The notes under the pieces were generated by a model, which ran no database searches, was not told the origin of the DNA, and worked only from the letters and a program-made list of their open reading frames with translations. A stretch of DNA of 64,000 nt. It comes from Naegleria gruberi (Eukaryota). Below are positions 9,237-48,298 of this stretch, piece after piece. Every line of letters starts with the position of its first letter. Position 1 is the stretch's first letter. Position numbers and translations under genes: made by a program. The stretch lies in the NCBI GenBank assembly GCA_000004985.1, contig GG738878.1; one strand, 5' to 3'.

Positions 9237-12200
9237 ATGTCAGAAACAAAGAAGCCATCGTCATCTACATCTCCATCTACTGGTACGGCAAAACCAGTCA
9301 AAGGAGTACAAAAATTGGCAGGTGACATTGGTAAGAAATATAAATTACTTGTCCAAATTATGACATCCGATCCAAGATATGCCAAAGCACTAGCAGATGT
9401 TGTTCCACCTGCACAACATGAAAAACTTGCCGATTCATTAATTTCACTTTCCTATGAAATTGGAGCATCACTTGCCATTATTAAATCTTTAATTGGTTTA
9501 GAATTTGATAGAAAACAATCTCATCCTAGTACCATTCTCAGAGTTAATTCTATCGTTTCTAAAATGATGGGTAAATATACTAAAAGAGTTGGTACTCAAT
9601 ATTTAAAATTGTTATTGAGCAAGGTTGTGAATGAAGTTGTTGAACAGGCAGAAACTTTGGATTTGGAAGTTGATCCAGAGAAAGTTCAAGGAGAAAACAA
9701 ACAAGAGATTATTGATCGTCGTCTTCAACAAATTGAAGAAGTTTGTCAACGTTTTCTCGATCGTATTACTTCTGAATCAATGATTGAAGAAATGCCACGT
9801 GAATTGAGAGCTGTTTGCTATTTTTTGAAACAATATGGTGAATATTACAAGTTTGATATTGAAAAGATGATTTTACCATTGATTTCTGGTTTTGTTTGTT
9901 TACGTTATATTTGTCCTGTTATTGCCATGCCTCAAAATGCTGATATTATTAAAATGGATGATTGGAAGAAGGGATGTGTCAGACAAAATTTAACACAAAT
10001 TGCAAAAGTGTAAGTTTTTATTAATATTTTATAATATTTATTATTAATATTTTATTTAATAATTGATAATATTTGATAATATTGTCTTTTATTTGATTGT
10101 ATTTGATAATAATTGATGGGTATTTTAAAATAACTGTTCATATTTTCAATGAATGTCATTGTAAATTGACAATTCTTGATGTGTTTTACAAAAATAGAAT
10201 TCAAAAATTGGCCAATGGTGAATTGTTTGATACAGCAACACCTTCACTCATGCCATTGAATGGTTGGATTCAAAAGAATCAAGAAGGTATTTTCAAATAT
10301 ATGGCTCAACTTCCAGTTGATCCAAAACAACAAGAAGGTTTGAATCCATTCGGTGATTTGCAACGTTCCATTACATTTGAAGATATTCACTACAAATCAT
10401 TTGATATGGATGATTTATTGTTCCTTCACACTTTAATTTATGATTATGGTTATGAGTTAATTGTTTCATTGCAAAATGAAGTTATCATGACACATGACAA
10501 GAGACCAGTTAGTATTGTGAGTACAGAAACTGACTTTTTATCACTTGTTCAAGATTTGGGACCTCCACCAGAAAAAGATAGAAAACTTCCACTTCCTGAA
10601 AAGAAACAAGAACCACCAAGAAAGGGCTCTGTTAAACCAAGTGATAAGAAAGACGAAACTGCACAACCTCAAAACAAACTCCAAAGAGAAACACTTGTTG
10701 GTAAGACATATGATCAAATTCAAGAAAAGGTTTTGGAACGTTCAATGGACAATTTGATGAAGAATAGTGAAAAGTTTGACTTGTCTGAGCTTGATAGAAC
10801 TAGATTTTTATATGTTGGTAAGCCAACTCGTCAAAATTTACCTGTTGTGTACTTGATTTTGCATCGTTTAAAGCAAGAATTTTTGAATCACAATGACAAG
10901 TTAATGATTTACATTTACAAAACTTTGGGTGCATTGTTTAATCAAAAGTATTGCTTGATTATTGATTTGAGTTGGGCTGATATGGCTGATGAATATCAAG
11001 CTTTATTATACAGAGCTGTTGTTGCCTTTGCTAGATTAATGAAGATTGAACATTTGGCCAATTGTCAACAAATTTATATTTTGCATCCAAATTTCAAGAC
11101 CAAGACAGCTGTTGATGATATTTTCAATATTATTCCAAATGAAACTAGACAAAGATTAATCAAGGTCAAGTATGATTGGACCTCTTTGAGTGATATCATT
11201 GAACCAATCAAGATTTGGATTCCATTCGTTTCTAAAAAGTTTATTCCAACCACTTACAATCTCATGTTAATGAAGGAAAAGGGTGACAGTGGTAATGAAC
11301 GTTTAATGAAGATTACCAACGATTCACTTCTCGTTTTGGACTCTAAATTGGGAACTGTTCTCGATGAAATTCCATTCACAACCATTGTTGACATTAGAAT
11401 TAAGAAGAATTGTAATGAATTCTTGATCAAACACAAGACTGAAACAGAACACATGTTAAAGGAAAGAGGTGGTGATCTTGGATACATTTCCAAGAATATT
11501 GCAACTGCCAATCAAACAGAAGTTGTCAAGAGATTCAATTGTGTCTCTGATCAACAAAGAGATAACCTTGTTGAAACCATTGCTGATGTTGGTGTAAGAT
11601 GTACTTCATTGGAAAAGAAACAAACTTTCATTGTTGAAAAGGATACTAAATCTGGAAAGAGACAAAAGAGAATTCTCAAATTTGCCTATGACTCTGTACT
11701 CGTCTTTAAGGAAGGTGTTATTAAGAGAGAAATTCCATTCTCCACACTCCAATCCTTCTATATTGATAAGGAAGAAAAGAGTAGAATGTTCATTAACTTT
11801 ATGTTACTAGGAAGAAAGAAGGCATACGTTGTCTATCATGAAAATGCAACAGCTCTTCGTGATAGCTTGTTGGACACTGTTGTTAGATTCAAGTTTAATG
11901 TTGATCTTGAAAAGGAACTTTTCATTAGAAAGGATTTGGATGCAGTTGTTGATCGTTTCTTCTCTGCTGCCAAGGACAAGACTCTCACTGATGAATCTGG
12001 TTTAACCTCTGACATCAAACAAATCGTCAATATTCACAATGCTTCTGAAGATATTAAGAAATTATTCTACAAATTCAATCCTCAGAATGATAAGCGTGCT
12101 CCACTAAGTGTCGATAAGATGAGAATTATTGCTACAAGTCTCAATGTTGATTTTTCTGAAGAACATAGCAGACATTTGGTTAGCATTTTGGATGAAAAGA

Positions 12201-12396: not shown

Positions 12397-14708
12397 TTAA
12401 ATATTTATTGTTGCCTTCTTCCATTTCATCTTCTTATTATAAAGATGATTATTAATTTCTTCCTGGAGAGAAATTTTATCAGGGCCTTCATATCGTCTAT
12501 TGATATCCTCCTTAACCTTGATAAGCATGTCTCTGTCTTTGAGCTCGTTGACAATGCATTGAATTGCAATGTCATAAATTCTATATTCATTGGCAATCTC
12601 TGCCTTGAGTTCCATTTCAGTTTTCTGGAAGGAAAATGATTGAAGTAAATCTCTAATCATTGGTATTGGAGCTCTGAATAACTTCAATACTTGCATAACA
12701 TTGTAAATATTGAGAATTGAGTTTGAATCAGCTCTGTTTGGTTTTCCTGTTAGCAATTTCATAAATCCACTATTTCCCTTTTGCATTTTCATATCGTAGG
12801 CAGAACAATAACAAAGGCCATCCTTTTGTGCCTTTGAATAGGCAATCATTACCCCCTTCCAATCACCAATTCTACTTCTTGCAACAATGGCATCATAAAA
12901 AAATCTATGTTGTGAGAGGTCAAAAAATTTGGCCAATGTTCTAGGACAAGCAATTTGATCATCTGGAGCAGCATTGTGATAGAATAGGCAGTATTTCATA
13001 GTCTCAGATAAAGTACTTCCATAAATTGGGAACTTTTTGTACTGTTTGAATATTGGATGTTTTCCTGAAAGAGCAATTGAATTATCTTGTTCATCAATTT
13101 TAAGTTGTTTTGCTGTTAAATGAATTAAATTGGCAGTGGCAATACTGAGCTCTTCTGCACAATCTAGAGAATATTTGTTAGATTTAAACCCAACTGGATT
13201 ATCAATAGCTTGTGCATTCTTTTGAATAAAAGAAAGACAATGTTCCAATGAATCCATCTTTTCGTATGGCTATTTAAATATTAGGTTCCTGAATTCAATT
13301 ATTTGATAATACTTACATCAGTAATTGTGATTGCCATCTTGTATTGAAGCAAAGCTTCATCTCTAATCATGTTATTGAATTTGTAAACCCTTTGAAGAGT
13401 TTTGTTGTCTCCAAGTTTCTTGAGGAATGAAATATAGGTCAAGACGAAAAATCCTGTCTCCCTATCAGCTTCAATTAAAACCTCCATGAAAGATCTAAAT
13501 GCCAGAGATTGTTCAATTGAAATTATTACTGGAATAATGACATCATAATTTCTTCCACAACTCTTCAAAAGAGCTACCTTTTGCTTTGACTCTCTGAGTC
13601 TTCTTAAATTACACCAGGCATCCAATTCTCTTTCTTGATTGGAAAATTGATCATTAGATCTATATTTATATTCATAATCCTCATCCAATGACTCGTTAAT
13701 TAATTCCTCCTCCTCATCAATTACCTCTTTATAAACTGGTGGCTTGGTAACTTTTCTTTTCTTTACCTTATCCAAGACAACCTTATTCAATTCATTAGAT
13801 TCAAGTCCTTCTCTAATTAAATCTCCCAAAGTTTTCACAACAACCTTCTCCTCCTCAAAGTAATCATCATATTTAGAGGAAGCGCTTTTTGGAGTTTCAC
13901 TAACAAAATCCTCCAATGAATTATTGGAATGTTCCAATTCCTTTCTGAGCTTGTGATTTTCCTCTTCCAATTTGAATAATTGTTTCTTTAATTGTTCGAA
14001 ATGTTCAAATGAAAATTCAAATTCCCTTGTTTGTCTCTTTTCTGATTTTTCAGTAGATTTAACAACCATTGGAGTTTCACTTTTTTCATTAACTACTACT
14101 GCTTTTGGAGAAATATTTAAAGATCCACTTGAAGGCACACGTGTTGGCAGAGGTTTAGTACTACCCACTGATGCTTCATTCATTGGTTGTTGTTGTTGTT
14201 GTTGATGTGAATTAGGAGGAGGTGTAGTTGATGTTTTTGATGAAGGAGGAACTGTTGGTAAATTCTTCTTATTATTTGCTTGAGGTGTCATTGGTAAACT
14301 CTTTGAAGGAATTGGAGGCTGTGTTGGAAGATTATTGATGAATGAATCGACATCGAATGGTTCAGCAGAGGCCTTACTGTTATTATTATGTTGTTGTTGT
14401 TGTTGATTATTTGTAATTATATTATTGGATGAAGAATTTTGTTTGTTACTAGTCGATGTAGTGGTGGTGAGGGAAGAAGGAAGAGGAGGCAATGAAGATA
14501 ATCGTGATGATGAACTATCAGGAGTTTCAATATGATCGTACAAATCTTCGGAATTAATAGAGAAGAAATTGGAGGCTGTTTCTGTAGCTGTTGATGAATC
14601 TGTAGTTGCTTCTTGGGATGATTGGAATTTACCTCCAGAGAGAAGCAAGATGGGATCATCGTCCTCTACTCTCTTTTGCATTTCACGCTTCTTACTCACC
14701 CAAGACAT
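12397..14708 (-). CDS. Hypothetical protein of about 770 aa with a Pro/Ser/Gln-rich low-complexity N-terminus and a coiled coil. Two exons, 14708..13317 and 13269..12397, with a 47-nt intron.
   Basis: The minus-strand ORF ends ...MAITITD followed by GTAAGT. The acceptor ...ttaaatag restores the frame into PYEKMDSLEHC..., which is the second ORF. Codon usage is coding-like. Confidence 0.55.
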
Positions 14709-19679: not shown

Positions 19680-19780
19680 TTTTTTTAATAAATTATTTAT
19701 ATTTTATTAATACTTTACAATGCAGTATTTAAATATATTTAATGTTTAGCTATGGACAAGGTAGTATTTAAAGATGATGA

Positions 19781-21206
19781 TTATTGAATGAGATCAGAGA
19801 TGGCTCTTTGAATATCACCTTCATACCTATTCAATAAGGTAATATTAAGAATGTGATTGGTGAAACCCATTTGATTCAATAATTTCAATTCTTTTTGATA
19901 TTTGTGTGGAATGGTTGTTTTCACAACTGGTTCTTCTTCTTCATCAGGAATTGATTCAATAATTGGATCTTGATTTTCAAGATTTTGATTGGAAACTTGT
20001 TGAGCTTGTTGTTGATTGACTGATTCATTTTCTTCTTGAGAAGCAATTGTTTCTTGTTGAATTTGTTCAACGACTGATTCAATTGGTTGATCTTCAATTA
20101 AATTGGAGAGAAGCAATGAAGTGGTCATTGTTGGAGTATTTTCAGTAACAATTTCTTAGTTCTTGAATTGGTTCTTCTTCTTTTGGTTGAGAAACAACAA
20201 TTGCAGATGGAGAAGTTTGAATTGGTTTCTCTTCTTGTTTCTTTTCTTGAGTTTGTGATTGTTGACTCTTTTGCTCTTCTTCTCTCATTTCCTTCATTCT
20301 TTGAAGTAATAATTCTCTGAATGATTGAGGTGTAGTTTCCTTCTTTTCTTTCTTTGTTTCTTCCTTTTCTGGTTGTTGTTGTTGTTGAGCAGCTTCATTA
20401 CTTGTTGGAATTCCCAAAAGATCAGCAAGACTAATTTCAATTCTTCTCACTTTTGGTTTTGTTTGAGGAGTGGAAGCAGAAACTTGTGGAAAGAATGATT
20501 GTTTTGGTTGAGCTGGATTTTCATTTGAGAAGGCAGATCTAAATGCCTTTTCAATCATATTTTCCCAAGATTGTTCTGCTTGTTGTTGAGGAGATTGTTT
20601 CTTTTGAGATTCAACTCTTGGTTGTTGGAATTGAGCAAATAAACATGCTGATGGTGATGCTTGTGAAATTCTATTGAAGGCAATATGTTGTTGAGGATAT
20701 TGTTGAGGATATGCTTGTTGTTGTGGTGATTTGATTGATTTCTTTTCACAAATAATCTTGGTCAATTTTCCTTTCATTAATTTCAACATGAATTGGAAAT
20801 CTCTTAAATTGGTCAATGAAACCAAATCATCTTCATCATCAACATAATGTAATTCAAATTGTCTCCTATCAATGGAATGTTCTCTCAAAACTCTATCAAA
20901 TAATTCGAAACTTCTCTCATGATTAGAATCAATTTCAAATCTCAAAACATTTGAAGCACTATTCAAATTGTGATTGAATTTTCCTTCAAAAACATAAATT
21001 TTGAATGGAACATTTCTTTCAACTTGTCTTGTTTGTGGAGAAATCAAAAGTGGAATTTTCTTTACATTATTTGCAAAATGTTGAGTTGGATAATCATTGA
21101 ATGATGAAGTTTCTCTCAAATTTGGATAAGAAACTTGTCTTGGAATAGTTTGTTGTTGAGGTTGGAAAGCAGCTGCAGTAGAAATTGGAATGTGGATGAA
21201 ACTCAT
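19781..21206 (-). pseudogene. PB1-UBA protein (p62/SQSTM1-like), frameshifted paralog of the gene at 46540..47979. It is split into ORFs 20142..21206 and 19781..20128.
   Basis: Alignment to the intact copy shows an 11-nt deletion (copy 2 caagaacAAGTGAAGGAGAAAGaaattg versus copy 1 caagaacTAAGaaattg) plus a 3-nt in-frame indel. Otherwise the two copies are about 97% identical. Confidence 0.55.
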
Positions 21207-21876
21207 TTTGATTTGGTTGATTGATATTTAGTAGTAGTATTATTTACACTTCTTAATATTCAGATTTTGTACACAAAATTTGACAAGTAGTTTAAAAGAC
21301 TAGTTGTTGATGTTAATTAATTTTTTTTCTTATTGTTTTGCTTTCACATTTTTCACTCTTGATCTATTTATAGTTTTGATAAGGAAAATAATTTGAACGT
21401 GCTCAATACTTTGTACTCACAACAAGCGCAGTTATTTTTGTCGATTGAGTGAAGAACTCACAAATTCTTAATGTGTGATTGAAGGAAAGGAACCCACGGA
21501 ATTTCATACGGAATGTTATTTTTATCTTCGGAAGCAGAAATTTCCTTACTCGATTAAACTCAAGGAAACCAAAACAATCAAATGATAACATTCTTCCAAT
21601 CATTCAGTAAGGAAGTCATCAAAATTACACCCCATGTTTTTACCTCCCTCTGCCCTCAATGTTATTGTTCTGTTCAATTCTTGCTTGGATGGAATAATAA
21701 TGGAGGAGGATAGGAATCTACATCTTTAACGGTCATTCTTTCATACTTTCAATCTCAGTACTGAAGATTGATCCGTTTTGTTTGAAGAAATGAACATTAT
21801 TCTATAACTTATCAAAGTGTTACTAAGGGATGAGAGAAAAATTTCAAACTGGGGATCTGGAAAGCTTAAACTTCAC

Positions 21877-23154
21877 TCAATATAATCCCTTATATGTAAG
21901 TGATGTTAATTGTTTCATTTCCCTTATATATTTGACTCCTTCATCACCAATTCGATTGGCACGAATATTAAGTGATATCAACTGTTTCATTTCACTTATC
22001 AATTTGGTTCCTTCATCACCAATTTGATTGTAAGAAATATCAAGTGATTTTAATTGTTTCATTTCACTCATAGATTTGGCTCCTTCATCACCAATTCGAT
22101 TGCCAGAAATATTAAGTGATGTTAATTGTTTCATTTCACTTATTAATTTGGCTCCTTCATCACCAATTTGATTGTTAGAAATATCAAGTGATGTTAATTG
22201 TTTCATTTCACTTATCAATTTGACTCCTTCACCACCAATTTGATTGTTAGAAATATTAAGTGATGTTAATTGTTTCATTTCACTTATCAATTTGGCTCCT
22301 TCATCACCAATTAGATTGTCAGAAATATTAAGTGATGTTAATTGTTTCATTTCACTTATAAACTTGGCTCCTTCTACACCAATTAGATTGTCAGAAATAT
22401 CAAGTGATGTTAATTGTTTCATTTCACTTATGAATTTGGCTCCTTCACCACCAATTTGAGTGAAACCAATATTAAGTGATGTTAATTGTCTGGTTTCACT
22501 TATCAATTTGGCTCCTTCATCACCAATTTCATTTTCACAAATATTAAGTGATATCAACTGTTTCATTTCACTTAGATATTTGGCCCCTTCTACACCAATT
22601 CGATTGCAACAAATATTAAGTGATGTTAATTGTTTCATTTCACTTATCAATTTGGCTCCTTCATCACCAATTAGATTGTCAGAAATATTAAGTGATGTTA
22701 ATTGTTTCATTTCACTTATCAATTTGGCTTCTTCATCACCAATTTCATTTTTACCAATATTGAGTGATATCAACTGTTTCATTTCACTTATCAATTTGGC
22801 TTCATCACCAATTCCATTGCCAGAAATATCAAGTGATGTCAATTGTTTCATTTTGCTAATGAATTTGGCTTCTTCAAAAGAATCAAGCAACCAATCAGAA
22901 TATGTAACATTAACAATACAATTCATAAATTGACTTTTCAAAAATAATTGAACTCGTGTCTTTGTAAATTTTTTGTTAAATTGAATAGCAAGTTTTGAAC
23001 GTTCCTTGATCACATTAAAGAATTGTTTTGAAATCAAGGAACAATTATTTAAAATAAACCATGAATCATCAATCATGGAAATTATTTCAAAACAAATGTC
23101 ATCTGAAAATATTTCTTGTTCCACTTTCACACCCTTTTTTACTTTCTCTTCCAT
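21877..23154 (-). CDS. F-box-like protein with about 13 ribonuclease-inhibitor-type leucine-rich repeats (LRR paralog 1).
   Basis: F-box-like segment DDICFEIISMIDDSWFILNNCSLISKQFFNVIKE. The 24-aa repeats have consensus LTSLNISxNxIGDEGAKLISEMKQ, each encoded by a 72-bp unit. The N-terminus is truncated relative to the paralogs by a stop upstream of the MEEK start. Confidence 0.7.
   Translation of the reverse strand: MEEKVKKGVKVEQEIFSDDICFEIISMIDDSWFILNNCSLISKQFFNVIKERSKLAIQFNKKFTKTRVQLFLKSQFMNCIVNVTYSDWLLDSFEEAKFISKMKQLTSLDISGNGIGDEAKLISEMKQLISLNIGKNEIGDEEAKLISEMKQLTSLNISDNLIGDEGAKLISEMKQLTSLNICCNRIGVEGAKYLSEMKQLISLNICENEIGDEGAKLISETRQLTSLNIGFTQIGGEGAKFISEMKQLTSLDISDNLIGVEGAKFISEMKQLTSLNISDNLIGDEGAKLISEMKQLTSLNISNNQIGGEGVKLISEMKQLTSLDISNNQIGDEGAKLISEMKQLTSLNISGNRIGDEGAKSMSEMKQLKSLDISYNQIGDEGTKLISEMKQLISLNIRANRIGDEGVKYIREMKQLTSLTYKGLY
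21890..22830 (-). repeat. Tandem array of about 13 near-identical 72-bp units (the coding LRR modules of paralog 1).
   Basis: Visible 72-nt periodicity, for example the recurring gtgatgttaattgtttcatttcacttatcaatttggctccttcatcaccaatt. Confidence 0.8.
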
Positions 23155-23772
23155 ATTATTATTATTAAAATTGTTAGTGAATATTATTTGTTAAATATCT
23201 CCTCCGAATTAATGAATTGCTGATTTTCAAATTCTTATTTTTTTTTAAATGAGAAAATTTACACAGTTCGGACGATCATATGTTTTTTTAATAAATATTT
23301 AATATTTACTATTAGATGTAATTAGAAAAGTTGGGATAGGAAGATAGGAACTATTGTGCTTTGAAATATTTACATGAACCAATTTTATTCACCGAGTACA
23401 AATCAAACAATATTATATTGAATAATAAGAAAGATAGGGAAAACAATTTGAACGTGCTCAATACTTTGAATCACAACACAAATCCAGATTTATTGAATTG
23501 TTCTTTGCAGATTAAGTAAGAACTCACAATTTGTTAATGTGTATGAAAGGAACTTACAAAATTTCACACGGAATTTTATGTTTATCTTCAGGCAGAAATT
23601 TCCTTACTAGATTAAACTACCCATTCTATAACAAAAATAACAAAATCACATTCCGTATGAAATTCCAATCAAGTGATAACATTGATAAGTTATAGAATAA
23701 TGTTCATTTCTTCAAATACAAGCAAGAGTCTTTAAAGCTAAGATTGGGAAGGTCTTCACTCAATTTAATCCC

Positions 23773-25128
23773 TTATATGAGCGTAATTGATGTTAATTGT
23801 TTCATTTCACTTATCAATTTGGCTCCTTCACCACCAATTCGATTGTCAGCAATATTAAGTGATGTTAATTGTTTCATTTCACTTATAAGTTTAGCTCCTT
23901 CTATACCAATTTGATTGTAAGAAATATCAAGTGATTTTAATTGTTTCATTTCACTTATCAATTTGGTTTCTTCATCACCAATTTCATTGTTAGAAATATT
24001 AAGTAATGTTAATTGTCTCATTTCACTTATCAATTTGGTTCCTTCATTACTAATTCGATTGCTACGAATATTAAGTGATATCAACTGTTTCATTTCACTT
24101 ATCAATTTGACTCCTTCTATACCAATTCTATTGTTAGAAATATTAAGTGATCTTAATTGTCTCATTTCACTTATGAATTTGGCTCCTTGATTAACAATTC
24201 GATTGGCACGAATATTAAGTGATATCAACTGCTTCATTTCACTTATCAATTTGGCTCCTTCATCACCAATTAGATTGTTAGAAATATTAAGTGATGTTAA
24301 TTGTTTCATTTCACTTATCAATTTGGTTCCTTCTATACCAATATCACTTTCACCAATATTAAGCGATGTTAATTGTCTCATTTCACTTATCAATTTGACT
24401 CCTTCAATACCAATTCGATTGCCACAAATATTAAGTGATGTTAATTGTCTCATTTCACGTATGCATTTGGCTCCTTCAACATCAACTTGAGTGTAAGAAA
24501 TATCAAGTGATGCTAATTGTTTCATTTCACTTATATATTTGGCTCCTTCATCAATTTCATTTTTACCAATATTGAGTGATATCAACTGTTTCATTTCACT
24601 TAGATATTTGGCTCCTTCATCACCAATTAGATTGGCAGAAATATCAAGTGACGTTAATTGTTTCATTTCACTTATCAATTTGGCTTCTTCATCACCAATT
24701 CCATTGCCAGAAATACTAAGTGATGTCAATTGTTTCATTTTACTAATGAATTTGGCTTCTTCAAAAGAATCAAGCAACCAATCAGAATATGTAACATTAA
24801 CAATACAATTCATAAATTGACTTTTCAAAAATAATTGAACTCGTTTCTTTGTAAATTTTTTTTTAAATTGAATAGTAAGTTTTGAACGTTCCTTGATCAC
24901 ATTAAAGAATTGTTTTGAAATCAAGGAACAATTATTTAAAATAAACCATGAATCATCAATCATGGAAATTATTTCAAAACAAATGTCATCTGAAAATATT
25001 TCATGTTCCAGTTTTACAACCTTTTTTGATTTCTCTTCCATATTATTATTATTAAAATTGTTAGTGAATATTTCCTCCGAATTAATGAATTGATGATTTT
25101 CAAAATCTTGTCTGTTTCGTTTGCTCAT
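23773..25128 (-). CDS. F-box-like/RI-type LRR protein (LRR paralog 2, 451 aa), tandem to paralog 1.
   Basis: Same architecture as paralog 1. The N-terminus MSKRNRQDFENHQFINSEEIF... is almost identical to that of the gene at 45393. Confidence 0.7.
   Translation of the reverse strand: MSKRNRQDFENHQFINSEEIFTNNFNNNNMEEKSKKVVKLEHEIFSDDICFEIISMIDDSWFILNNCSLISKQFFNVIKERSKLTIQFKKKFTKKRVQLFLKSQFMNCIVNVTYSDWLLDSFEEAKFISKMKQLTSLSISGNGIGDEEAKLISEMKQLTSLDISANLIGDEGAKYLSEMKQLISLNIGKNEIDEGAKYISEMKQLASLDISYTQVDVEGAKCIREMRQLTSLNICGNRIGIEGVKLISEMRQLTSLNIGESDIGIEGTKLISEMKQLTSLNISNNLIGDEGAKLISEMKQLISLNIRANRIVNQGAKFISEMRQLRSLNISNNRIGIEGVKLISEMKQLISLNIRSNRISNEGTKLISEMRQLTLLNISNNEIGDEETKLISEMKQLKSLDISYNQIGIEGAKLISEMKQLTSLNIADNRIGGEGAKLISEMKQLTSITLI
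23780..24720 (-). repeat. Tandem array of 72-bp LRR-coding units (paralog 2).
   Basis: 72-nt periodicity. The units are about 85-95% identical to each other and to the array at 21890..22830. Confidence 0.8.
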
Positions 25129-31162: not shown

Positions 31163-32697
31163 ATGACAAACCAACAACAAGATGGTGGAGTAATTAACAC
31201 CACCTTCTCATCACCTCCAAACCAACAGTTTCGTATAAATTCACCACCTTCTCTCACTAACCTGACAAGTCAAACTTCATCTCAAGACACAATGCTTGCT
31301 GACTCACCAACCAAGATCAATAACAGTTCTCTTAATAGAAGAGAGTCCTCCACTCAAAAATCTACAACTAAAAGTTTACCATCCTCATCCAAAACTCCAA
31401 GAAGCTCCTCAGTTACAGGTTTCCATTCGAGAAACTTTCGTATATATACATGCTGTGGTATTCTAGAGCTGAATTGCTTGAAAATGACAAGTTTCCTTGC
31501 CTTGATCGTTAGTTTATTTGCTTTTGCATCCTTGATTGTGATCATTAGTGTAAACTATTCGATTGTTGCAGGTTTCAAAGCAACATTAGCAAATTTAGAC
31601 ACTGACGGAACTTATTACAGAGAATTAATGAAGTTATCTGCACGTGCTGCAGTCACAGCTGAATATAACAGAACATTGTCATTGGAATATGTCAATTTGT
31701 ACAATAATTATTACTATTTATACTATGTAGATTTAAACGCAACCATTGCAAATGTTCCTGCTTCAGTGCTGTATTGGAATCAACACAACATGTTGAGAGA
31801 CGATGTCAAATCCAGAAGAGCTGTCAAGATGGAAATCACCATGATGGTTCAAGTGACAAGTGGCAACTATTCTGCAGCTTTACAAACTCTCGATTCAGCT
31901 CAATACAAAGATTTATTAACAGGTTACCAGGAAGAAGTTCAAAGTATCTTTGATTATGCCGATAACATGAAAGAACAAAGTGCAAATCTCGATTTGGCAA
32001 CCACAACTGCTGCACTGATCATAGCCTGCACTTCCATTGTAATTGTGGTTCCTGTTCTGATTGTGTTTATTGTGTTGAGTGTCAAGAAAGATAATTCGAA
32101 AGAGAAACAATTGAGACAAGTGAAGAAATACATGATTATGGACACGATTAATGATCCTTCAGTGGTGGAAAAGTTTAAAGATTTTTGCAAACAAGAGAGA
32201 AGTGAAGAGAATTTTGCATTATTGGAAAAGATTAACGAATATAAGAAATTGTGTGAAAGAAGTTTCGATATTCAGGTTTTCTTATTCGATACTGATGTTT
32301 TGAGTAGTTCAGATCAATTTTCTGAGATGACTTCGTCGAGTAATGATGATTCTTCCAAGAAGAAGAACAAAGCAAAAAGGGATATACTGAAAAGGATTTA
32401 TTGGAAATTGAAAAGAAGAAATTCGAAATTGCATTCGAAATTTATTCAGAATTTTTGGATGTTCGTGGTGATCGTTCAGTGAATATCAGTAAGGCATTTG
32501 CTGATAATGTGAAACAACACTTGGATTATTTCGCAAAGGGAGAAAACGAATCCATTCCAGAAAGTTTATTCGAAAGTATTGAATACGAAATGTGTGTCTT
32601 GATGATGGACACTCACCACAGATTCAAACAACACTTGGAATTGCAAATGAAAGAAAAGAAACAAATCTTGTCTTCTCTCAAGAAATCCAAAAAGTAA
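31163..32697 (+). CDS. Transmembrane RGS-domain protein, paralog 1. The frame is broken by a 1-nt deletion at about 32373 and continues as ORF 32401..32697.
   Basis: Ser-rich N-terminus, a CCGILELNC motif, a TM helix, an extracellular region, a second TM, then an RGS domain (FKDFCKQERSEENFALLEKINEYKK ... EIYSEFLDVRGDRSVNIS...MMDTHHRFKQ). Compared with paralog 2 (gctaaaaaggg), this copy reads gcaaaaaggg, one nucleotide short. Confidence 0.6.
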
Positions 32698-33320: not shown

Positions 33321-34874
33321 ATGACAGGTACAACAATCGAAATGCTAGATAGTAGTGCTACGAACATTAATACTTCCACAACTAGCTTTTCCTCCAATCA
33401 AATCAACAGAATCAACTCTCCACCTTCAGTCAACCTGACCAGTTTGACCTCTTCACAAGATTCCATGATTCCAACATCACCAACCAATAATTCCAACTCT
33501 ATGAACAGAAGAGATTCCACTCACAAATCCACAACTGGTAAAAGTTTACCATCCTCATTGAAAACACCAAGAACTTCATCTGTTACTGCTTTCCATTCGA
33601 AAAACTTTCGTATACATACATGTTGTGGCATTCTAGAGCTGAATTGCTTGAAAATGACAAGTTTGGCAGCACTTGTTGTTAGTTTATTCGCATTTACTGC
33701 CTTAATTGCAATCATTAGTTTAAACTATTCAGTAGTTGCCACCTATCACTCAAGTTTAGAAACTTTAGAAACTTCTGGAACTTATTACAGAGAATTGATG
33801 AAATTATCTGCACGTGCTGCAGTCACAGCTGATTATAACAGAACCTTGTCATTGGAATATGTCGACTTGTACAATAGTTATTTTAAAGAGTATTATGTAG
33901 TAATGAATAATTTAATTGCAAACGTTCCTCCTTCAGTGCTGTATTGGAATCAACATAACATGTTGAGAGAAAATGTCAAATCAAGAAAAGCTGTCAATAT
34001 GGAAGTTGCCATGATGTCACAAGTCACAAATGGAAATTATACAGCAGCTCTCAGATCCCTCGATTCAGATCAATACAAAGATTTGCTAACAGGTTATGAA
34101 GAAGAAGTTCAAAGTATCATTGATTATGTCGCCGACCTTAAATATTCGAATGCAGAAATGGATTTGGCAACCACAACTGTTGCCTTGATTATTATTTGCA
34201 TTTCTCTGGCAATTGTTATTCCAGTTCTGATTGTATTTGTATTATTGAGTGTTCAGAAAGATAATTCGAAAGAGAAACAATTGAGACAAGTGAAGAAATA
34301 CATGATTATGGATACGATTAATGATCCTTCTGTGGTGGAGAAGTTTAAAGATTTTTGCAAACAAGAGAGAAGTGAAGAAAATTTTGCATTGTTGGAAAAG
34401 ATTAATGAGTATAAGAAATTGTGTGAAAGAAGTTTCGATATTCAGGTTTTCTTATTCGATACTGATGTATTGAGTAGTTCAGATCAATTTTCTGAAACAA
34501 CAACATCCAGTACTGAAGACGCATCCAAGAAGAAGAACAAAGCTAAAAAGGGATATACTGAAAAAGATTTAATGGAAATTGAAAAGAAGAAATTCGAAAT
34601 TGCATTCGAAATTTATTCAGAATTCTTGGATGTTCGTGGTGATCGTTCAGTGAATATCAGCAAGGCATTTGCTGATAATGTGAAACAGCATTTGGATTAT
34701 TTCGCAAAGGGAGAAAATGAATCCATTCCAGAAAGTTTATTCGATAGTGTGGAATACGAAATGTGTGTCTTGATGATGGACACCCACCACAGATTCAAAC
34801 AATTTATGGAAGTTTCCCTCAAGGAAAAGAAACAAATTCTTTCAACATTGAAGAGAAAAACTGTAAAAAAGTAA
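33321..34874 (+). CDS. Transmembrane RGS-domain protein, paralog 2 (intact, 517 aa).
   Basis: Same architecture as paralog 1 (about 80% identity) with an uninterrupted ORF and a complete RGS domain. Confidence 0.65.
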   Translation: MTGTTIEMLDSSATNINTSTTSFSSNQINRINSPPSVNLTSLTSSQDSMIPTSPTNNSNSMNRRDSTHKSTTGKSLPSSLKTPRTSSVTAFHSKNFRIHTCCGILELNCLKMTSLAALVVSLFAFTALIAIISLNYSVVATYHSSLETLETSGTYYRELMKLSARAAVTADYNRTLSLEYVDLYNSYFKEYYVVMNNLIANVPPSVLYWNQHNMLRENVKSRKAVNMEVAMMSQVTNGNYTAALRSLDSDQYKDLLTGYEEEVQSIIDYVADLKYSNAEMDLATTTVALIIICISLAIVIPVLIVFVLLSVQKDNSKEKQLRQVKKYMIMDTINDPSVVEKFKDFCKQERSEENFALLEKINEYKKLCERSFDIQVFLFDTDVLSSSDQFSETTTSSTEDASKKKNKAKKGYTEKDLMEIEKKKFEIAFEIYSEFLDVRGDRSVNISKAFADNVKQHLDYFAKGENESIPESLFDSVEYEMCVLMMDTHHRFKQFMEVSLKEKKQILSTLKRKTVKK

Positions 34875-38343: not shown

Positions 38344-39566
38344 TTAAACTTCAGTCTTGAGGTGAACAATTTCAGGACCAACTTCATCATATTGTTCCCT
38401 TGTAACACACAAATCAAAGAATGAAGACAAGGTAGCTCTAATACTGCCACCAATCCATGCCAATTGATCTCTCCTATCTCCTGCAACAATACGAATATCC
38501 ATTGAAGATGGTGCCTTCTCTGTCATTTCCTTTGTTAATCTCTCTTCAATACCTTCAAATTTTGTTGAACCACCAGCAAGAACTGAATTACGATACAATG
38601 TCTTACGAACGTCGATTGGTGAACGACTAATTGATTCAAACAAGAGTTCATGTATACCAGATGATTCCATACCAATAAGTTGAGGATAGAAGAGAACTTC
38701 TGGTGCACGGAATCTTTCAGAATTGATTGTAATTGCTGTACCATCAGGTAAGTTGTAAACTTGATCCAAAGATGAACTTTCCTCTGCTTTTTCCATTTCT
38801 TCATCATAATCCAATGGAATGTAACAGTGTTTTTCTTTCATTTGTCTAATAATTTCATGTTCGGCTGTTGTGTGGAAATTGTGGTCCTTTTCACTTAACA
38901 TTTTCATTAAATATTCTGTCACATCTCTTCCAGCAATATTCAATCGGAGTACAGCATGAAGCATGACTGTATTTTAATGAAAATCCAAGAAATTATAATC
39001 GAAACAATTATTCGAAACACAAAATCTATCAAAGGACATTATACAAATAAAAACATACCAAGACCATCATACATTGGAACACAATGAGCTGCACCATCAC
39101 CAACATCCAAACAAACACCTGTCAATCTACCAGAAGCCATCAATGACAATGCTCCTTGAATACCCAAATAAAAAGCAGGAACTTCAAACTTTTCCATTAA
39201 AATTTCACAAACTTTCTCACGTTGTACTTTTGGTGTGAAAGGAGCATCTGTTAATAAAAGTGGTTGTTCCTCAGGTGCTAATTTTAATTCATTGTAATAG
39301 GTGTGAGCAATAACAGATTCCCAGTGATCATAATTTTCAATTGTTCCGTGTACCATTGGATAGTCTAATTGCAAAACACCTCTCTTGGATTGAGCAGAAT
39401 GTCCAACATAATGTTCTCGGTTGACTGTACCAACAAGTACTGAAGTATCTTTTGCTTTACCAATCATATTGGAAAATACGGCACTTGGTGATTGATAACC
39501 AGCAACACCAGCTTTGATGAAGCCAGATCCATTATCGATAACTACTGTTGGAAGTTGTGATGCCAT
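38344..39566 (-). CDS. Actin-related protein, Arp1/centractin-like. Two exons: about 39060..39566 and 38344..38966. The 92-nt intron is at about 38967..39059 (display numbering uncertain by 1 nt).
   Basis: MASQLPTVVIDNGSGFIKAGVAGYQ ... LTDAPFTPKVQREKVCEILMEKFEVPAFYLGIQGALSLMASGRLTGVCLDVGDGAAHCVPMYDGL, then GTATGT...acag, then V-MLHAVLRLNIAGRDVTEYLMK...ISERFRAPEVLFYP...WIGGSI.... This aligns along its full length with actin and Arp1. The likely true start is the second Met (MASQ...). Confidence 0.8.
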
Positions 39567-42012: not shown

Positions 42013-44554
42013 TTATTTTATAAATACTTTCTTTGACTCTTTCCACATCTCTGACAAATCTTTTCCTCGAATTAGAGAATTACTTGCTCTCAAGTAGAAA
42101 TGATCTTGATGTTCAAATTGACTGGCACTAGTTAAAATACGTTCCTTAAATTGATTTTCCAATTGTGGAGACTCTGGAATAGATATAGTATTTTCAAAAA
42201 AGGAGGTAATGAGATAATTCTGCAGGGAATTGAGGATTGAAAGAATAATTGGAGATTTGAGGTTCTTGGCTATGTGGAAGAAATCTTTCCCAACGCTTGC
42301 ATTCATTTCTTGAAGATTCTTATCGTTAGTGTTGAGAATACCTTGCATGTAAATACTCAAGTTCAACAACTTGGACATGTACTCCAAGAAGAGAACTTCC
42401 AAATCTTGCTCCCCTTCTGATGTGATAACGCTCAAGAAGGTCAAACATTCTGTCAAGTTTCTTGGAATAAAGCATTCCATTTCTGCCATAACATAGTTGG
42501 TATTCAGTGACATGGAGCTGTACTGACTAGTGAGAATGGCAAAGAATTTCGTGTTAAACTTTTCAAATTGATCGACAAGTTTTGCTGATTTCGTAGTGAT
42601 TCCAGAGAGGTAAGTAAGCTTGAGAAAGTTGAACACCAATTTCTTGAACTGTACACTATTGGTTGTACATCCCTCAATCTGTTGATGGATTTCAATGAGC
42701 AACAAGTATCTGGTAAATAGAGCATGTTGTAACTCCAATACACTTTGAATATCAACATTCTCTGATAACTTGTTCACAATTAGATCAAGCATATTCTTAA
42801 TGACGAGTTGATTGTAGGATGAATTCACACTCTTGAATTCGAGGATGGTATTAAAGAAGGAACTCCACAGATTACAAATTATAGTCTGTATGTCATTGGT
42901 GATAATATTGAAATCCTTCTTATTTTGCTTTACACTCTTCTCACTTTCTAATAATAAGATTGGTCTATTATCATCATGTGGGGAGAGCTTGAATAGACAA
43001 TAGTATTTCAAAAAGAGAGACTCTAGGGAAAAATACATGCCGTGGTAGTATGGTTCCATAATTCTATTGAGAATAGAGAGGAGAACCTTTTCTCTAATGA
43101 AAGGCATCAATTGATTCTTACTCTTATTACCATCCATACACTCAACCAAAAAGCTAACGAATTCATCTGATAAAAAGAGACGAAACATTTCGTTAAAGCT
43201 ATCATCTGGACAGTTTTCCTTAATATCATTAGGGAGGTTTGCTTCAGGGAAGATCATGTGTAAAATGTAATTTCTTCTATCAATTTCCTTTCTAGAGAAG
43301 AGGGCTGGGATTACTGGTGTGGTAGTTGCTGCATTGGAGCTGCTGGAGGCAATTATCTGAGAGTTAGACTGCAATAGATTGGTCCTTTCCAAATCTACTA
43401 CTGTTGCAGAGGGAACCTCATTCTTCTTAGAGACCTTTCTTTTCTTTGCTTCCTCCTTACTTTGAGCTTCCTCTTCAGCTGTCTTCATCTTTGGTCCTCT
43501 CTTCTTAGGTTCATAATAAACACATTCATCAGGTATTCCTCTCTTTTTACATTCACCACAAGGCATTCCCTTATCTTTAAAATGGGGTCTGTAAATTTTA
43601 CTGTAATCTCTACAAATACTTACCACTAAATTAGAGTCAATTACAACCTGCCTAATACATTGAAAATACTTACCATTTACGATGTGATTTTCTACAATTT
43701 ATACATGCCATTCTGGCTTGACTTGGATCTGTGGGTGGTTGTTGGGTTTGGGAGTTATTGGATGAAGGGGCTTGTTGGACGGATGAGGAGGCCACTATTA
43801 CTGATTGTGTTGTCTTTACCAACTCTTGGTCAGCAATACAGTGAGAAACCTTAACTGGTGTCGTGGTAGGACTGTTTGTGACAATAATTCCAGTTGTTGT
43901 GGAAGAGGAAGGATTAGATGATGGTTGCATTTCAGGACTTGTCCCAATTGTTACTTGCTGTGGAGTCTTTCTGTATCCAGATATATAGCCAGGAATAAAA
44001 CTATCCATAGGAACAATATCAATACTTGGTTGAATAATGGCTTGATAAAGAGGAGGTGCATATCTTACAATAGTTTGTGGTTGTGCTGACAAGGCTTCCA
44101 TCAAATCATGACCACCATTACTATGAAGAGGTGGTTTTGGTTCCATATTATTACCACGCCACGATTGTGGATGTTGTTGTTGATAGTGATGAATGTGATC
44201 CACCATGACTTTTGAAGATGGTTGTTGTGAAGTCAAATTATGAATGGAAGGAAGACTGAATCCTTGTTGATGTTGATGTGGAGGTGTCTGGGAAGGAATA
44301 AAAGAGGAAGAATTGCTCTTCATAGCAAGAGGCAAACAGGAAGGGTAAATTGATGAACTCGGATTCATCATGATTAAATTATTGTGCTGATGATGATGAT
44401 TATTACCCACATGATGATGGTGACCACTAGAAGCAATATGAGAATTATTTGTGGTATTATTGGTGGAGGAGGAATTGGTTGGTGTGGATGGAGTGGATGG
44501 CGATTGTTGTTGTTGCCCAGGCTCCACTTTCACCATCACAGCTAAAGGTTTCAT
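42013..44554 (-). CDS. Zn(II)2Cys6 (fungal-type zinc cluster) transcription factor. Two exons, 43674..44554 and 42013..43600, with a 73-nt intron. The N-terminus is His/Gln/Ser/Pro-rich.
   Basis: Exon 1 ends ...RMACINCRKSHRK-TG|GTAAGT. The acceptor ...gattacag|t gives Cys, so the spliced product reads ACINCRKSHRKC-KIYRPHFKDKGM-PCGECKKRGIPDECVYYEPKKRGPK, a six-Cys cluster pattern CX2CX6C...CX2CX8C. The track start at 44617 is a GTG, and the first ATG is at 44554. Confidence 0.6.
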
Positions 44555-45392: not shown

Positions 45393-46040
45393 ATGAGCAA
45401 ACGAAACAGACAAGATTTTGAAAATCATCAATTCATTAATTCGGAGGAAATATTCACTAACAATTTTAATAATAATAATATGGAAGAGAAATCAAAAAAA
45501 ATTGTAAAACTGGAACAAGAAATATTTTCAGATGACATTTGTTTTGAAATAATTTCCATGATTGATGATTCATGGTTTATTTTAAATAATTGTACTTTAA
45601 TTTCAAAACAATTCTTTAATGTGATCAAGGAACGTTCAAAACTTGCTATTCAATTTAAAAAAAAATTTACAGAGAAACGAGTTCAATTATTTTTGAAAAC
45701 TCAATTCATGAATAGTATTGTTAATGTTACATTTTCTAGTTGGTTGCTTGATTCTTTTGAAGAAGCCAAATTCATAACTGAAATGAAACAGTTGATATCA
45801 CTTAATATTCGTGGCTATGATTTTGGTGATGAAGAAGCCAAATTGATAAGTGAAATGAAACAATTAACATCACTTGATATTTCTTACAATCAAATTGGTG
45901 ATGAAGGAGCCAAATATCTAAGTGAAATGAAACAGTTGATATCACTTAATATTCGTGGCAATCGAATTGGTGATGAAGGAGTCAAATATATAAGTGAAAT
46001 GAAACAATTAACATCACTTACATATAAGGGATTATATTGA
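45393..46040 (+). CDS. F-box-like/RI-type LRR protein, paralog 3 (215 aa, only about 4 LRR units).
   Basis: The N-terminal 110 aa are about 95% identical to paralog 2. The C-terminus LTSLTYKGLY is the same as paralog 1. The repeat array has far fewer 72-bp units. Confidence 0.7.
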   Translation: MSKRNRQDFENHQFINSEEIFTNNFNNNNMEEKSKKIVKLEQEIFSDDICFEIISMIDDSWFILNNCTLISKQFFNVIKERSKLAIQFKKKFTEKRVQLFLKTQFMNSIVNVTFSSWLLDSFEEAKFITEMKQLISLNIRGYDFGDEEAKLISEMKQLTSLDISYNQIGDEGAKYLSEMKQLISLNIRGNRIGDEGVKYISEMKQLTSLTYKGLY

Positions 46041-46539
46041 GTGAAGTTTAAGCTTTCCAGATCCCCAGTTTGAAATTTTTCTCTCATCCCTTAGTAACAC
46101 TTTGAAAAGTTATAGAATAATATTCATTTCTTCAAACAACACGGATCAATCTTCAGTACTGAGATTGAAAGTATGAAAGAATGACTGTTGTTTCGGTTTC
46201 CTTGAGTTTAATCGAGTAAGGAAATTTCTGCTTCCGAAGATAAAAATAACATTCCGTATGAAATTCCGTGAGTTCCTTTCCTTCAATCACACATTAAGAA
46301 TTTGTGAGTTCTTCACTCAATCGACAAAAATAACTGCGCTTGTTGTGAGTACAAAGTATTGAGCACGTTCAAATTATTTTCCTTATCAAAACTATAAATA
46401 GATCATGTGAAAAATGTGAAAGCAAAACAATAAGAAAAAAAATTAATTAACATCAACAACTGGTCTACTTGTCAAATTTTGTGTACAAAATCTTAAGAAG
46501 TGTAAATAATACTACTAAATACCAATCAACCAAATCAAA

Positions 46540-47979
46540 ATGAGTTTCATCCACATTCCAATTTCTACTGCAGCTGCTTTCCAACCTCAACAACAAACTA
46601 TTCCAAGACAAGTTTCTTATCCAAATTTGAGAGAAACTTCATCATTCAATGATTATCCAACTCAAAATTTTGTAAATAATGTAACAAAAATTCCACTTTT
46701 GATTTCTCCACAAACAAGACAAGTTGAAAGAAATGTTCCATTCAAAATTTATGTTTTTGAAGGAAAATTCAATCACAATTTGAATAGTGCTTCAAATGTT
46801 TTGAGATTTGAAATTGATTCTAATCATGAGAGAAGTTTCGAATTATTTGATAGAGTTTTGAGAGAACATTCCATTGATAGGAGACAATTTGAATTACATT
46901 ATGTTGATGATGAAGATGATTTGGTTTCATTGACAAATTTAAGAGATTTCCAATTCATGTTGAAATTAATGAAAGGAAAATTGACCAAGATTATTTGTGA
47001 AAAGAAATCAATCAAATCACCACAACAACAAGCATATCCTCAACAATATCCTCAACAACATATTGCCTTCAATAGAATTTCACAAGCATCACCATCAGCA
47101 TGTTTATTTGCTCAATTCCAACAACCAAGAGTTGAATCTCAAAAGAAACAAGCTCCTCAACAACAAGCAGAACAATCTTGGGAAAATATGATTGAAAAGG
47201 CATTTAGATCTGCCTTCTCAAATGAAAATCCAACTCAACCAAAACAATCATTCTTTCCACAAGTTGCTGCTTCCACTCCTCAAACAAAACCAAAAGTGAG
47301 AAGAATTGAAATTAGTCTTTCTGATCTTTTGGGAATTCCAACAAGTAATGAAGCTGCTCAACAACCAGAAAAGGAAGAAACAAAGAAAGAAAAGAAGGAA
47401 AGTACTTCTACACCTCAATCATTCAGAGAATTATTACTTCAAAGAATGAAGGAAATGAGAGAAGAAGAGCAAAAGAGTCAACAATCACAAACTCAAGAAA
47501 AGAAACAAGAAGAGAAACCTATTCAAACTTCTCCAACTGCAATTGTTGTTTCTCAACCAAAAGAAGAAGAAGAACCAATTCAAGAACAAGTGAAGGAGAA
47601 AGAAATTGTTACTGAAAATACTCCAACTATGACCACTTCATTGCTTCTCTCCAATTTAATTGAAGATCAACCAACTGAATCAGTCGTTGAACAAGTTCAA
47701 CAAGAAACAATTGCTTCTCAAGAAGAAACAGAATCAGTGAATCAACAACAAGCTCAACAAGTTTCCAATCAAAATCTTGAAAATCAAGATCCAATTATTG
47801 AATCAATTCCTGAAGAAGAAGAAGAACCAGTTGTGAAAACAACCATTCCACACAAATATCAAAAAGAATTGAAATTATTGAATCAAATGGGTTTCACCAA
47901 TCATATTCTTAATATTACCTTATTGAATAGGTATGAAGGTGATATTCAAAGAGCCATCTCTGATCTCATTCATCAATAA
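46540..47979 (+). CDS. PB1-UBA protein (p62/SQSTM1-like ubiquitin-binding scaffold), the intact copy (479 aa).
   Basis: N-terminal PB1 domain (VPFKIYVFEGKF...LHYVDDEDDLVSLTNLRDFQFMLKL, an OPCA-type acidic motif), a Q/E/K-rich linker and a C-terminal UBA (ELKLLNQMGFTNHILNITLLNRYEGDIQRAISDLI). Confidence 0.7.
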   Translation: MSFIHIPISTAAAFQPQQQTIPRQVSYPNLRETSSFNDYPTQNFVNNVTKIPLLISPQTRQVERNVPFKIYVFEGKFNHNLNSASNVLRFEIDSNHERSFELFDRVLREHSIDRRQFELHYVDDEDDLVSLTNLRDFQFMLKLMKGKLTKIICEKKSIKSPQQQAYPQQYPQQHIAFNRISQASPSACLFAQFQQPRVESQKKQAPQQQAEQSWENMIEKAFRSAFSNENPTQPKQSFFPQVAASTPQTKPKVRRIEISLSDLLGIPTSNEAAQQPEKEETKKEKKESTSTPQSFRELLLQRMKEMREEEQKSQQSQTQEKKQEEKPIQTSPTAIVVSQPKEEEEPIQEQVKEKEIVTENTPTMTTSLLLSNLIEDQPTESVVEQVQQETIASQEETESVNQQQAQQVSNQNLENQDPIIESIPEEEEEPVVKTTIPHKYQKELKLLNQMGFTNHILNITLLNRYEGDIQRAISDLIHQ

Positions 47980-48298
47980 TCATCAAGTTTAAATAAATAC
48001 TACCTTGTAAATATCTAAATATTAAATAATTCGCTTTACAAGTAGTTGCCTGTTAAGCCATGCATGTTAACCGTACTACAGAATGTAGTTATACTTGTAG
48101 TAGGAGGAAGATCATCTGTTGTTACAAGAGATTCACAAATCAAGTTCTTTATGTAATTGCCATCATTAATTTCTGTTTTTAGTATAATCTACAAATGTTT
48201 AATATTTTGATCTATGTCCTTCAATACATCTGTAACATTAGAATACTGCAAATTTTTCATCTTCTTAATAATATTTGATAAAGGAAGAACATCAAATT

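Follow-up and report, generated by a model that had tools for sequence, protein, structure and literature searches.

The closest described systems for the genes reported here are p62/SQSTM1, which has the domain order PB1-ZZ-LIR-UBA, NBR1, with the order PB1-ZZ-FW-LIR-UBA, and the ubiquilin/Dsk2 proteins, which combine an N-terminal UBL and STI1 repeats with a UBA domain. p62 proper is reported to be confined to Metazoa, the presence of an FW domain together with PB1 or ZZ is the defining feature of NBR1 homologs, and p62-type PB1 domains polymerise through acidic OPCA and basic Lys surfaces (PMC9582228). A search of the literature found no paper on PB1, NBR1 or p62 proteins of Naegleria, nor on the present locus. 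Here, we analysed a 64,000-nt stretch of Naegleria gruberi DNA, referred to as the window, which has a G+C content of ~33% and carries densely packed, mostly intronless ORFs. The window contains two copies of a PB1-UBA gene. One of these, copy B, is intact, and in the other, copy A, the PB1 part and the UBA part lie in different reading frames.

Copy A (19781-21206, minus strand) corresponds to NAEGRDRAFT_69380 (XP_002675426.1; D2VKG0) and, at 1426 nt, has a length not divisible by 3. Copy B (46540-47979, plus strand) corresponds to NAEGRDRAFT_69394 (XP_002675341.1), is intronless and encodes a protein of 479 aa that was 100% identical to a Naegleria gruberi predicted protein in a protein search. 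The coding sequences of the two copies differ at 20 of 1417 aligned bases, giving an identity of 98.6%, or of 96.4% when gap columns are counted, which makes the value of about 97% given in the preliminary description a fair one. The copies lie in the arms of an inverted segmental duplication, in which arm A (19736-21577) aligns with arm B (46188-48028, read as 48028-46188) at 95.4% identity, gaps included. Homology continues beyond the arms into neighbouring leucine-rich-repeat (LRR) genes, reaching ~25216 in rearranged form on the A side and running down to ~45308 within an LRR gene on the B side; 21728-22159 matches 46189-45758, and 24505-25216 matches 46019-45308. At the other end, homology between the copies stops ~45 nt past the stop codon, and the two genes therefore have different 3' surroundings. 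The 3' flank of copy A below position 19736 is unique and leads towards NAEGRDRAFT_80304. The 5' flanks are as similar as the coding sequences are at aligned bases (98.6%, over 352 aligned bases), and dS between the copies is 0.024 overall. Judged by these measures of divergence, the duplication is young. A third paralog, NAEGRDRAFT_69945 (P0003; 456 aa, 84% identical), is located on another scaffold, and an ortholog recovered from a Logan assembly (P0004) is 48% identical. When the contig that encodes this ortholog (L001) was compared with the window as an outgroup, the gene itself was the sole match and no common neighbours were found.

The PB1 domain of copy A spans about residues 59-155 (20742-21032, minus strand) and includes an OPCA-like motif, YVDDEDDLV. 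The Pfam PB1 model (PF00564) scored 23.9 bits on copy B and 25.9 bits on the upstream ORF of copy A (ORF1), both marginal against the cut-off of 23.6. A profile built from the N-terminal regions of six N. gruberi family members gave the PB1 domain of p62/Sequestosome-1 as its best structure match (E = 4.4e-4), followed by the PB1 structures of Cdc24, TFG, NBR1, p40phox and Par6. Only this six-sequence profile was effective, and a PDB search with the PB1 region as a single sequence returned chance matches alone. The profile search aligned the acidic OPCA motif YVDDEDDLVSL on YRDEDGDLVAF of p62. In the predicted first strand (FKIYVF), one Lys does not vary among the six family members; it may be the equivalent of K7 of p62, a residue with which HMMER did not align it. 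AF2 modelled residues 59-155 in the order beta-beta-beta-alpha-beta-beta-alpha-beta, which is beta-grasp-like, at a pLDDT of just 50-67. The mean pLDDT of the whole model was 40, and the linker was mostly disordered. A Foldseek search of the PDB gave no significant match; many PB1 structures were listed, all at E > 0.3.

The UBA remnant of copy A (19787-19894, minus strand) retains the MGF loop, which is also present in the UBA domain of copy B. A three-helix bundle is predicted in the intact copy, with AF2 placing three helices within residues 438-478 (pLDDT 56-71). The Pfam model UBA_NBR1_C scored 23.5 bits on copy A and 19.8-24.5 bits across the copies and homologs, below the cut-off of 27, and a UBA profile produced weak matches to the UBA structures of ubiquilin and Dsk2 (E = 0.012-0.08). 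The domain calls of the preliminary description are thus supported, with PB1 just above its Pfam cut-off, UBA_NBR1_C below its own, and structure-profile matches in addition; for the UBA domain the lines of evidence point the same way, each of them being weak.

An exhaustive profile search found full-length relatives in Naegleria only, these being P0003, P0004 and P0005 (NAEGRDRAFT_59290). Two distant N. gruberi paralogs, NAEGRDRAFT_81162 and NAEGRDRAFT_82058, have the order PB1-ZZ-UBA. The ZZ domain is present only in distant paralogs (P0010 and P0041) and is absent from copies A and B, P0003, P0004 and P0005; searches for the FW/NBR1 domain and for ZZ returned none in copy B at E <= 1 and none in P0003, P0004 and P0005 at E <= 0.01. 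The family resembles p62/SQSTM1 in its N-terminal PB1 with the OPCA motif and the strand-1 Lys, its long disordered linker and its C-terminal UBA, and the ZZ finger of NAEGRDRAFT_81162 and 82058 adds to this likeness. The PB1-UBA subfamily differs from p62 in having neither a ZZ domain nor a demonstrated LIR, and the resemblance is one of architecture, not necessarily of orthology. With NBR1 it shares PB1 and a C-terminal UBA, for which UBA_NBR1_C was the best Pfam model, but it has neither FW nor ZZ. Its UBA sequence is closest to the structures of ubiquilin-4, ubiquilin-2 and Dsk2, with the MGF loop and a GDI/L...AI motif in common, but the Naegleria proteins have no N-terminal UBL and no STI1 repeats and carry PB1 at the N-terminus. 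On domain content, the Naegleria PB1-UBA family falls within the definition of neither NBR1 nor p62. N. gruberi thus has a small, expanded p62-like family made up of PB1-UBA and PB1-ZZ-UBA proteins without FW. By analogy, the family may act as a p62-type scaffold, combining self-association through PB1 with ubiquitin binding through UBA. F-x-x-V/L patterns (FFPQV, FREL) occur in the sequence and are candidate LIR motifs.

Copy B is a single ORF of 479 codons, and the same coding sequence in copy A is divided between two minus-strand ORFs in different frames. A pairwise DNA alignment places an 11-column gap in copy A. At the base level, copy B reads GAAC-AAGTGAAGGAGA-AAGAAATT and copy A reads GAAC-T-AAGAAATT, so that the 12 nt at 47588-47599 (plus strand) of copy B, which have AAG microhomology on their flanks, are matched by a single T in copy A, for a net change of -11. 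The junction in copy A lies at 20158-20159 (minus strand), where C20159 is followed by T20158, within the sequence GAACTAAGAAATT; without the T, the same site would read GAACAAGAAATT. In the UBA frame, this T gives rise to a TAA (20158-20156). A base private to copy A lies 33 nt downstream of the junction (CCAACAATGACC in A, CCAACTATGACC in B). The upstream ORF (20142-21206, minus strand) encodes 354 aa, made up of 349 native residues and the novel tail LRNCY, and ends at a premature TGA (20142-20144, minus strand) located 5 codons past the junction in the PB1 frame (L-R-N-C-Y-stop); the C-terminal end of the truncated product is EEEPIQELRNCY. The C-terminal remnant (19781-20155, minus strand) is out of frame; no stop codon interrupts its +1 frame between the new TAA and the original TAA stop codon (19783-19781). 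The peptides QPIESVVEQIQQ, EENESV and IPDEEEE are specific to copy A on the UBA side. The loss of 11 nt from the linker, as first described, is therefore confirmed as an 11-column gap, and the two ORFs proposed to be out of frame, one for the UBA part (19781-20128, minus strand, 115 aa, falling inside the C-terminal remnant) and one for the PB1 part (20142-21206, 354 aa), were recovered exactly. The term "UBA exon" used for the former is incorrect, since the intact copy has no introns.

The length of copy B at the lesion site (QEQVKEKEIV) is shared by NAEGRDRAFT_69945 (QEQLKEQEIV) and by P0004, and the state of copy A is therefore derived. An insertion in copy B in place of a deletion in copy A was ruled out by both outgroup homologs. 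The change could have arisen either as an 11-nt deletion with an adjacent A>T substitution, as a 12-nt in-frame deletion with a 1-nt insertion, or as one complex event; a 12-nt deletion would sit between two AAG microhomologies. The site contains no homopolymer and consists of purine-rich, low-complexity GAA/AAG sequence. Four further indels distinguish the copies, all of them multiples of 3 (9, 6, 3 and 3 nt), and they sit in CAA/GAA repeats or small tandem duplications. Lengths in multiples of 3 require no selection, because slippage in trinucleotide-repeat and duplicated contexts produces them. A ciliate-type genetic code was considered and rejected: the reading frame of intact copy B is closed by a TAA and contains neither TAA nor TAG before it, and the organism is N. 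gruberi.

The public protein model of copy A, XP_002675426.1 (P0002; 455 aa, one intron), is reconstructed exactly by joining ORF1 and ORF2 and removing 58 nt. The modelled intron (20092-20149, minus strand) starts with GTTACTGAAAAT and ends with AATTGAAG (GTTACT...TTGAAG), and its removal yields the exon-exon junction peptide ELRN-YQPIESV (ELRNYQPIESVVEQIQQ). If the model were correct, splicing of 20149-20092 would give a PB1-UBA protein lacking ~19 linker residues. GT and AG boundaries are indeed present at the segment, removal of 58 nt does restore the frame, and likely N. gruberi introns in the window are as short as 38-64 nt. Against this, positions +3 and +5 of the donor GTTACT are occupied by T and C, both of which differ from the GTAAGT (3) and GTATGT (2) donors of the five likely introns that are needed to join long ORFs in the window; at a sixth junction, which is ambiguous, the donor is GTAAGT or GTAAAT. 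The composition of the segment is exon-like, with an A+T content of 66% compared to 68% in coding sequence and 70-85% in the likely introns, the five unambiguous ones spanning 76-85%. The likely introns carry stop codons in most frames, and the 58-nt segment has one stop-free frame. At 57 of its 58 positions it also agrees with copy B (VTENTPTMTTSLLLSNLIE, coding and in frame there), where the same stretch, with identical sites, is annotated as exon and where splicing of 58 nt would destroy the gene. Its removal deletes TTSLLLSN...IED, the best-conserved element of the linker; the TTSLLLSN motif is kept in P0003, P0004 and P0005 and occurs as TTSQLLSS in the ZZ-containing paralog P0041. Finally, the model uses the only GT donor able to bridge the two frames of copy A, and a homology-guided gene caller therefore had no alternative. 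Taking the sequence features of the segment together, we judged the intron not credible and regard it as an annotation patch over the frameshift. The segment is presumably not spliced, XP_002675426.1 is probably not a real protein, and correctness of the public model is very unlikely. As an annotation correction, this means that XP_002675426.1/D2VKG0 hides a frameshift by removing 58 nt of ancestral coding sequence, and that it should enter counts or alignments of Naegleria PB1-UBA or p62-like genes as a pseudogene or truncated gene.

We then compared the substitutions in the two copies. The 20 substitutions between A and B comprise 13.5 nonsynonymous and 6.5 synonymous changes by the Nei-Gojobori method (omega 0.51), and the proportion of nonsynonymous changes (13/20) does not differ significantly from neutrality (p = 0.10). 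Pairwise omega is 0.32 downstream of the junction versus 0.73 upstream, values based on 3-9 changes each that are uninformative on relaxed constraint. Amino-acid changes were polarised against the P0003 protein, with synonymous changes left out. Downstream of the junction, all four polarisable changes (T>I, V>I, T>N, E>D) fell on the A lineage and none on the B lineage, and the penultimate His codon was also lost on the A lineage. Upstream, one change was A-derived, five were B-derived and three were ambiguous. The association of lineage with region was marginal on these tiny counts (Fisher p = 0.048). On the A lineage, the rate per nonsynonymous site was 1/834 upstream versus 4/298 downstream (p = 0.019), a contrast that is lost (p = 0.22) if the three ambiguous changes are assigned to A. 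The four downstream changes are compatible with the 2.1-3.6 expected under neutrality. Changes confined to A are what would be expected downstream if the UBA remnant were no longer translated, and on this pattern of substitutions the remnant looks unconstrained. Codons 50-204 of copy A contain no amino-acid change, which has a probability of 0.01-0.07 if the gene has been neutral since the duplication, for a test region that was picked post hoc; for PB1 proper (residues 59-155), the probability of no change is 0.06-0.19. The PB1 sequence of copy A is compatible with constraint, with inactivation at a very recent date and with homogenisation through gene conversion, three states that the data cannot separate.

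These results are best explained by a real and recent loss of the UBA domain from copy A, which would make it a young pseudogene or at best a PB1-only truncated paralog, with the 455-aa model an artefact; we assign this reading a probability of about 0.58. According to this reading, an inverted segmental duplication of an intronless PB1-UBA gene would have generated copy A, and a complex indel would later have replaced 12 nt with 1 nt in the low-complexity linker on the A lineage. Translation from the normal ATG would then yield a 354-aa product with PB1 and most of the linker, lacking the TTSLLLSN motif and the UBA domain, and the UBA sequence downstream would be left untranslated and drifting. 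The promoter side, being essentially unchanged, would be expected to drive an mRNA whose 3' UTR is lengthened by ~360 nt that were formerly coding. Automated gene modelling would subsequently have bridged the frameshift with a fake intron, giving rise to the 455-aa database protein. N. gruberi encodes SMG1/SMG9-type NMD factors (PMC6173133), and these may destabilise the copy A transcript.

Copy A resembles a duplicated (non-processed) pseudogene in being a recent duplicate with an intact, parent-like neighbour, a single disabling indel that is derived relative to intact homologs, and near-neutral divergence. It further resembles a duplicated pseudogene masked in annotation, since its model puts a non-consensus intron exactly over the lesion. 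It differs in that the ORF is undamaged over the upstream two-thirds of the gene, PB1 included, and that the promoter side looks intact, and on these grounds copy A may be a truncated gene that is not fully dead. The absence of any PB1 amino-acid change in A is not what one would readily expect of a gene inactive from the duplication onwards; the unchanged PB1 is accounted for equally well by a frameshift of very recent date or by gene conversion. Of the proposal that copy A is a likely recent pseudogene, the derived frameshift, the loss of the UBA domain and the young duplication (dS ~0.024) hold, and the gene may be dead as a whole or may have lost only the UBA domain; loss of function is likely on our preferred reading. 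Either way, copy A represents an ordinary outcome, the commonest fate of a young gene duplicate.

A frameshift that is real in a gene that is still alive would place the 354-aa PB1-only product under selection, for example as a modulator or dominant negative that caps or joins the PB1 polymers of its paralogs. In support of this, the promoter-side flank retains 98.6% identity to that of the intact copy over ~350 nt, PB1-region codons 50-204 are unchanged in copy A, and only one clear A-lineage change lies upstream of the junction compared to four downstream. The OPCA motif aligned to that of p62 and the invariant strand-1 Lys also fit, as p62-type PB1 domains polymerise by these surfaces (PMC9582228). 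The post hoc choice of the PB1 test region, the weaker probability for PB1 proper and the dependence of the upstream/downstream contrast on the three ambiguous changes all count against selection, a recent frameshift or gene conversion would leave the same pattern, and the premature stop with its ~360 nt of extra 3' UTR may trigger NMD through the SMG1/SMG9-type factors (PMC6173133). We therefore consider a selectively kept PB1-only product possible but unlikely. Because PB1 has both an acidic and a basic surface, a truncated product could join paralog polymers without binding ubiquitin, and the dominant-negative action proposed in the preliminary description is plausible by analogy. The more specific proposal that copy A is a selectively retained derivative of a p62-like receptor, which co-assembles with NAEGRDRAFT_69394 and 69945 and tunes or caps filaments or condensates, is a speculative one that we hold to be distinctly improbable. 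If the PB1-only reading were true, copy A would exemplify the natural evolution of a dominant-negative regulator in a protist with independently evolved p62-like architectures. A natural PB1-only truncation would also be a handy means to probe PB1 polymerisation in the Naegleria family.

Alternatively, the frameshift may be a sequencing or assembly error or a single-haplotype variant, in which case copy A would be intact, encode ~474-475 aa and differ only by an in-frame 12-nt deletion. In favour of this, the loss of exactly 12 nt in frame, bounded by AAG microhomologies, together with the gain of a single T would account for the lesion, and without that T copy A has an uninterrupted ORF of 474 codons containing ...PIQEQEIVTENT...; the other four indels are all in frame, and the UBA remnant is unchanged apart from the His lost near its end. 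In the preliminary description, sequencing error was taken to be less likely because the deletion is not in a homopolymer. The sequence context was correctly described, but the argument is weakened, because, should the lesion be a 12-nt in-frame deletion plus a T, one base alone decides the frame. The extra T nevertheless lies in the context C-T-A, outside any homopolymer, and base-calling indels seldom occur in such a setting. Every C-terminal change that could be polarised falls on the A lineage, including positions where B equals P0003, which speaks for a real lesion of some age, and the in-frame indels lie in repeated or duplicated contexts where slippage yields multiples of 3 without selection. 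In a search for a second source of the locus, the proteins of copy B, of the two ORFs of copy A, P0002, P0003 and NAEGRDRAFT_80304 were looked up for exact matches in a contig index, which returned no contig, and in cluster look-ups the relevant clusters consisted of the NCBI entry alone. The Logan run ERR1078381 contains DNA resembling that of N. gruberi, with 99% identity to a distant paralog, and this locus is not in it. Overall, we regard an error or a single-haplotype variant as rather improbable, and the indel is likely to be real in the organism.

Expression of the UBA domain could also continue by recoding, either through a +1 frameshift at UAC-UGA-A or through reinitiation at the ATG at 20128, which lies 13 nt after the stop codon. 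What speaks for this is geometry alone, as the frame is regained by a +1 shift at any point in 20155-20142 and the stop has an ATG after it, but any deletion of 11 nt would yield such geometry. Reinitiation after an ORF of 354 codons is very inefficient in eukaryotes. Recoding is accordingly extremely improbable compared to loss of the UBA domain, and the Met encoded at position 20128 is not conserved, being replaced by Ile in NAEGRDRAFT_69945.

A short linker motif, TTS(L/Q)(L/I)(L/I)S(N/S)..IED, is kept in all members of the family, including the ZZ-bearing P0041 (NAEGRDRAFT_82058) and the 48%-identical ortholog, and may represent a binding motif. It lies at 20089-20127 (-) in the frameshifted PB1-UBA gene (copy A) and at 47627-47665 (+) in the intact gene (copy B). 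In the public annotation, copy A is modelled without this motif.

The PB1-UBA members in N. gruberi are NAEGRDRAFT_69394 (copy B), 69380 (copy A), 69945 and 59290. Two further proteins, P0010 (NAEGRDRAFT_81162) and P0041, both encoded outside the window, have PB1, ZZ and UBA domains without an FW domain, bringing the family to at least six members in this single protist. The FW domain is the defining feature of NBR1, and p62 has been described as restricted to Metazoa (NBR1 review, PMC9582228). The PB1-ZZ-UBA layout of P0010 and P0041 without FW is a p62-like architecture. N. gruberi-like DNA was also found in L002, a contig of 3336 nt from the Logan run ERR1078381, and its encoded protein is identical to NAEGRDRAFT_82058 at 452 of 455 residues, so public data do include a second strain or haplotype.

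Six likely short spliceosomal introns that join long ORFs were located in the window, at 10010-10197 (+), 13270-13316 (-), 38967-39058 (-), 50010-50047 (-), 63059-63110 (-) and about 43610-43680 (-), the last with an ambiguous junction where GTAAAT is the other possible donor. Their lengths range from 38 to 188 nt and their A+T content from 70 to 85%, and a GTAAGT or GTATGT donor option is available in all six. Together they can serve as a modest local standard against which splice sites of N. gruberi are compared.

Upstream of copy A, about 150 nt (21578-21727) have no counterpart in the otherwise collinear B arm of the inverted duplication, where 46188 directly adjoins 46189 at the corresponding point; the difference may stem from either an insertion in A or a deletion in B. 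Both PB1-UBA copies are flanked by leucine-rich-repeat (LRR) genes with an internal period of 72 nt (24 aa). On the A side these form a tandem pair (21877-23154 and 23773-25128, both (-)), and on the B side there is a single short gene, NAEGRDRAFT_69393 (45393-46040 (+), 215 aa). The 5' part of NAEGRDRAFT_69393 resembles the second A-side LRR gene, while its 3' part and flank resemble the first. This arrangement looks like the product of unequal recombination inside the repeat array, during or after the inverted duplication. The intergenic segment between copy A and the first LRR gene (21378-21560) is 77.5% identical to a segment downstream of the second (23433-23618), so the 3' flank travelled along with the LRR tandem duplication.

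Another tandem paralog pair was observed in the window at 31163-32482 (+) and 33321-34874 (+), with a DNA identity of ~84% (31235-32666 vs 33411-34837). Both of its proteins match the RGS domain, that of 33321-34874 above the Pfam cut-off and that of 31163-32482 below it.
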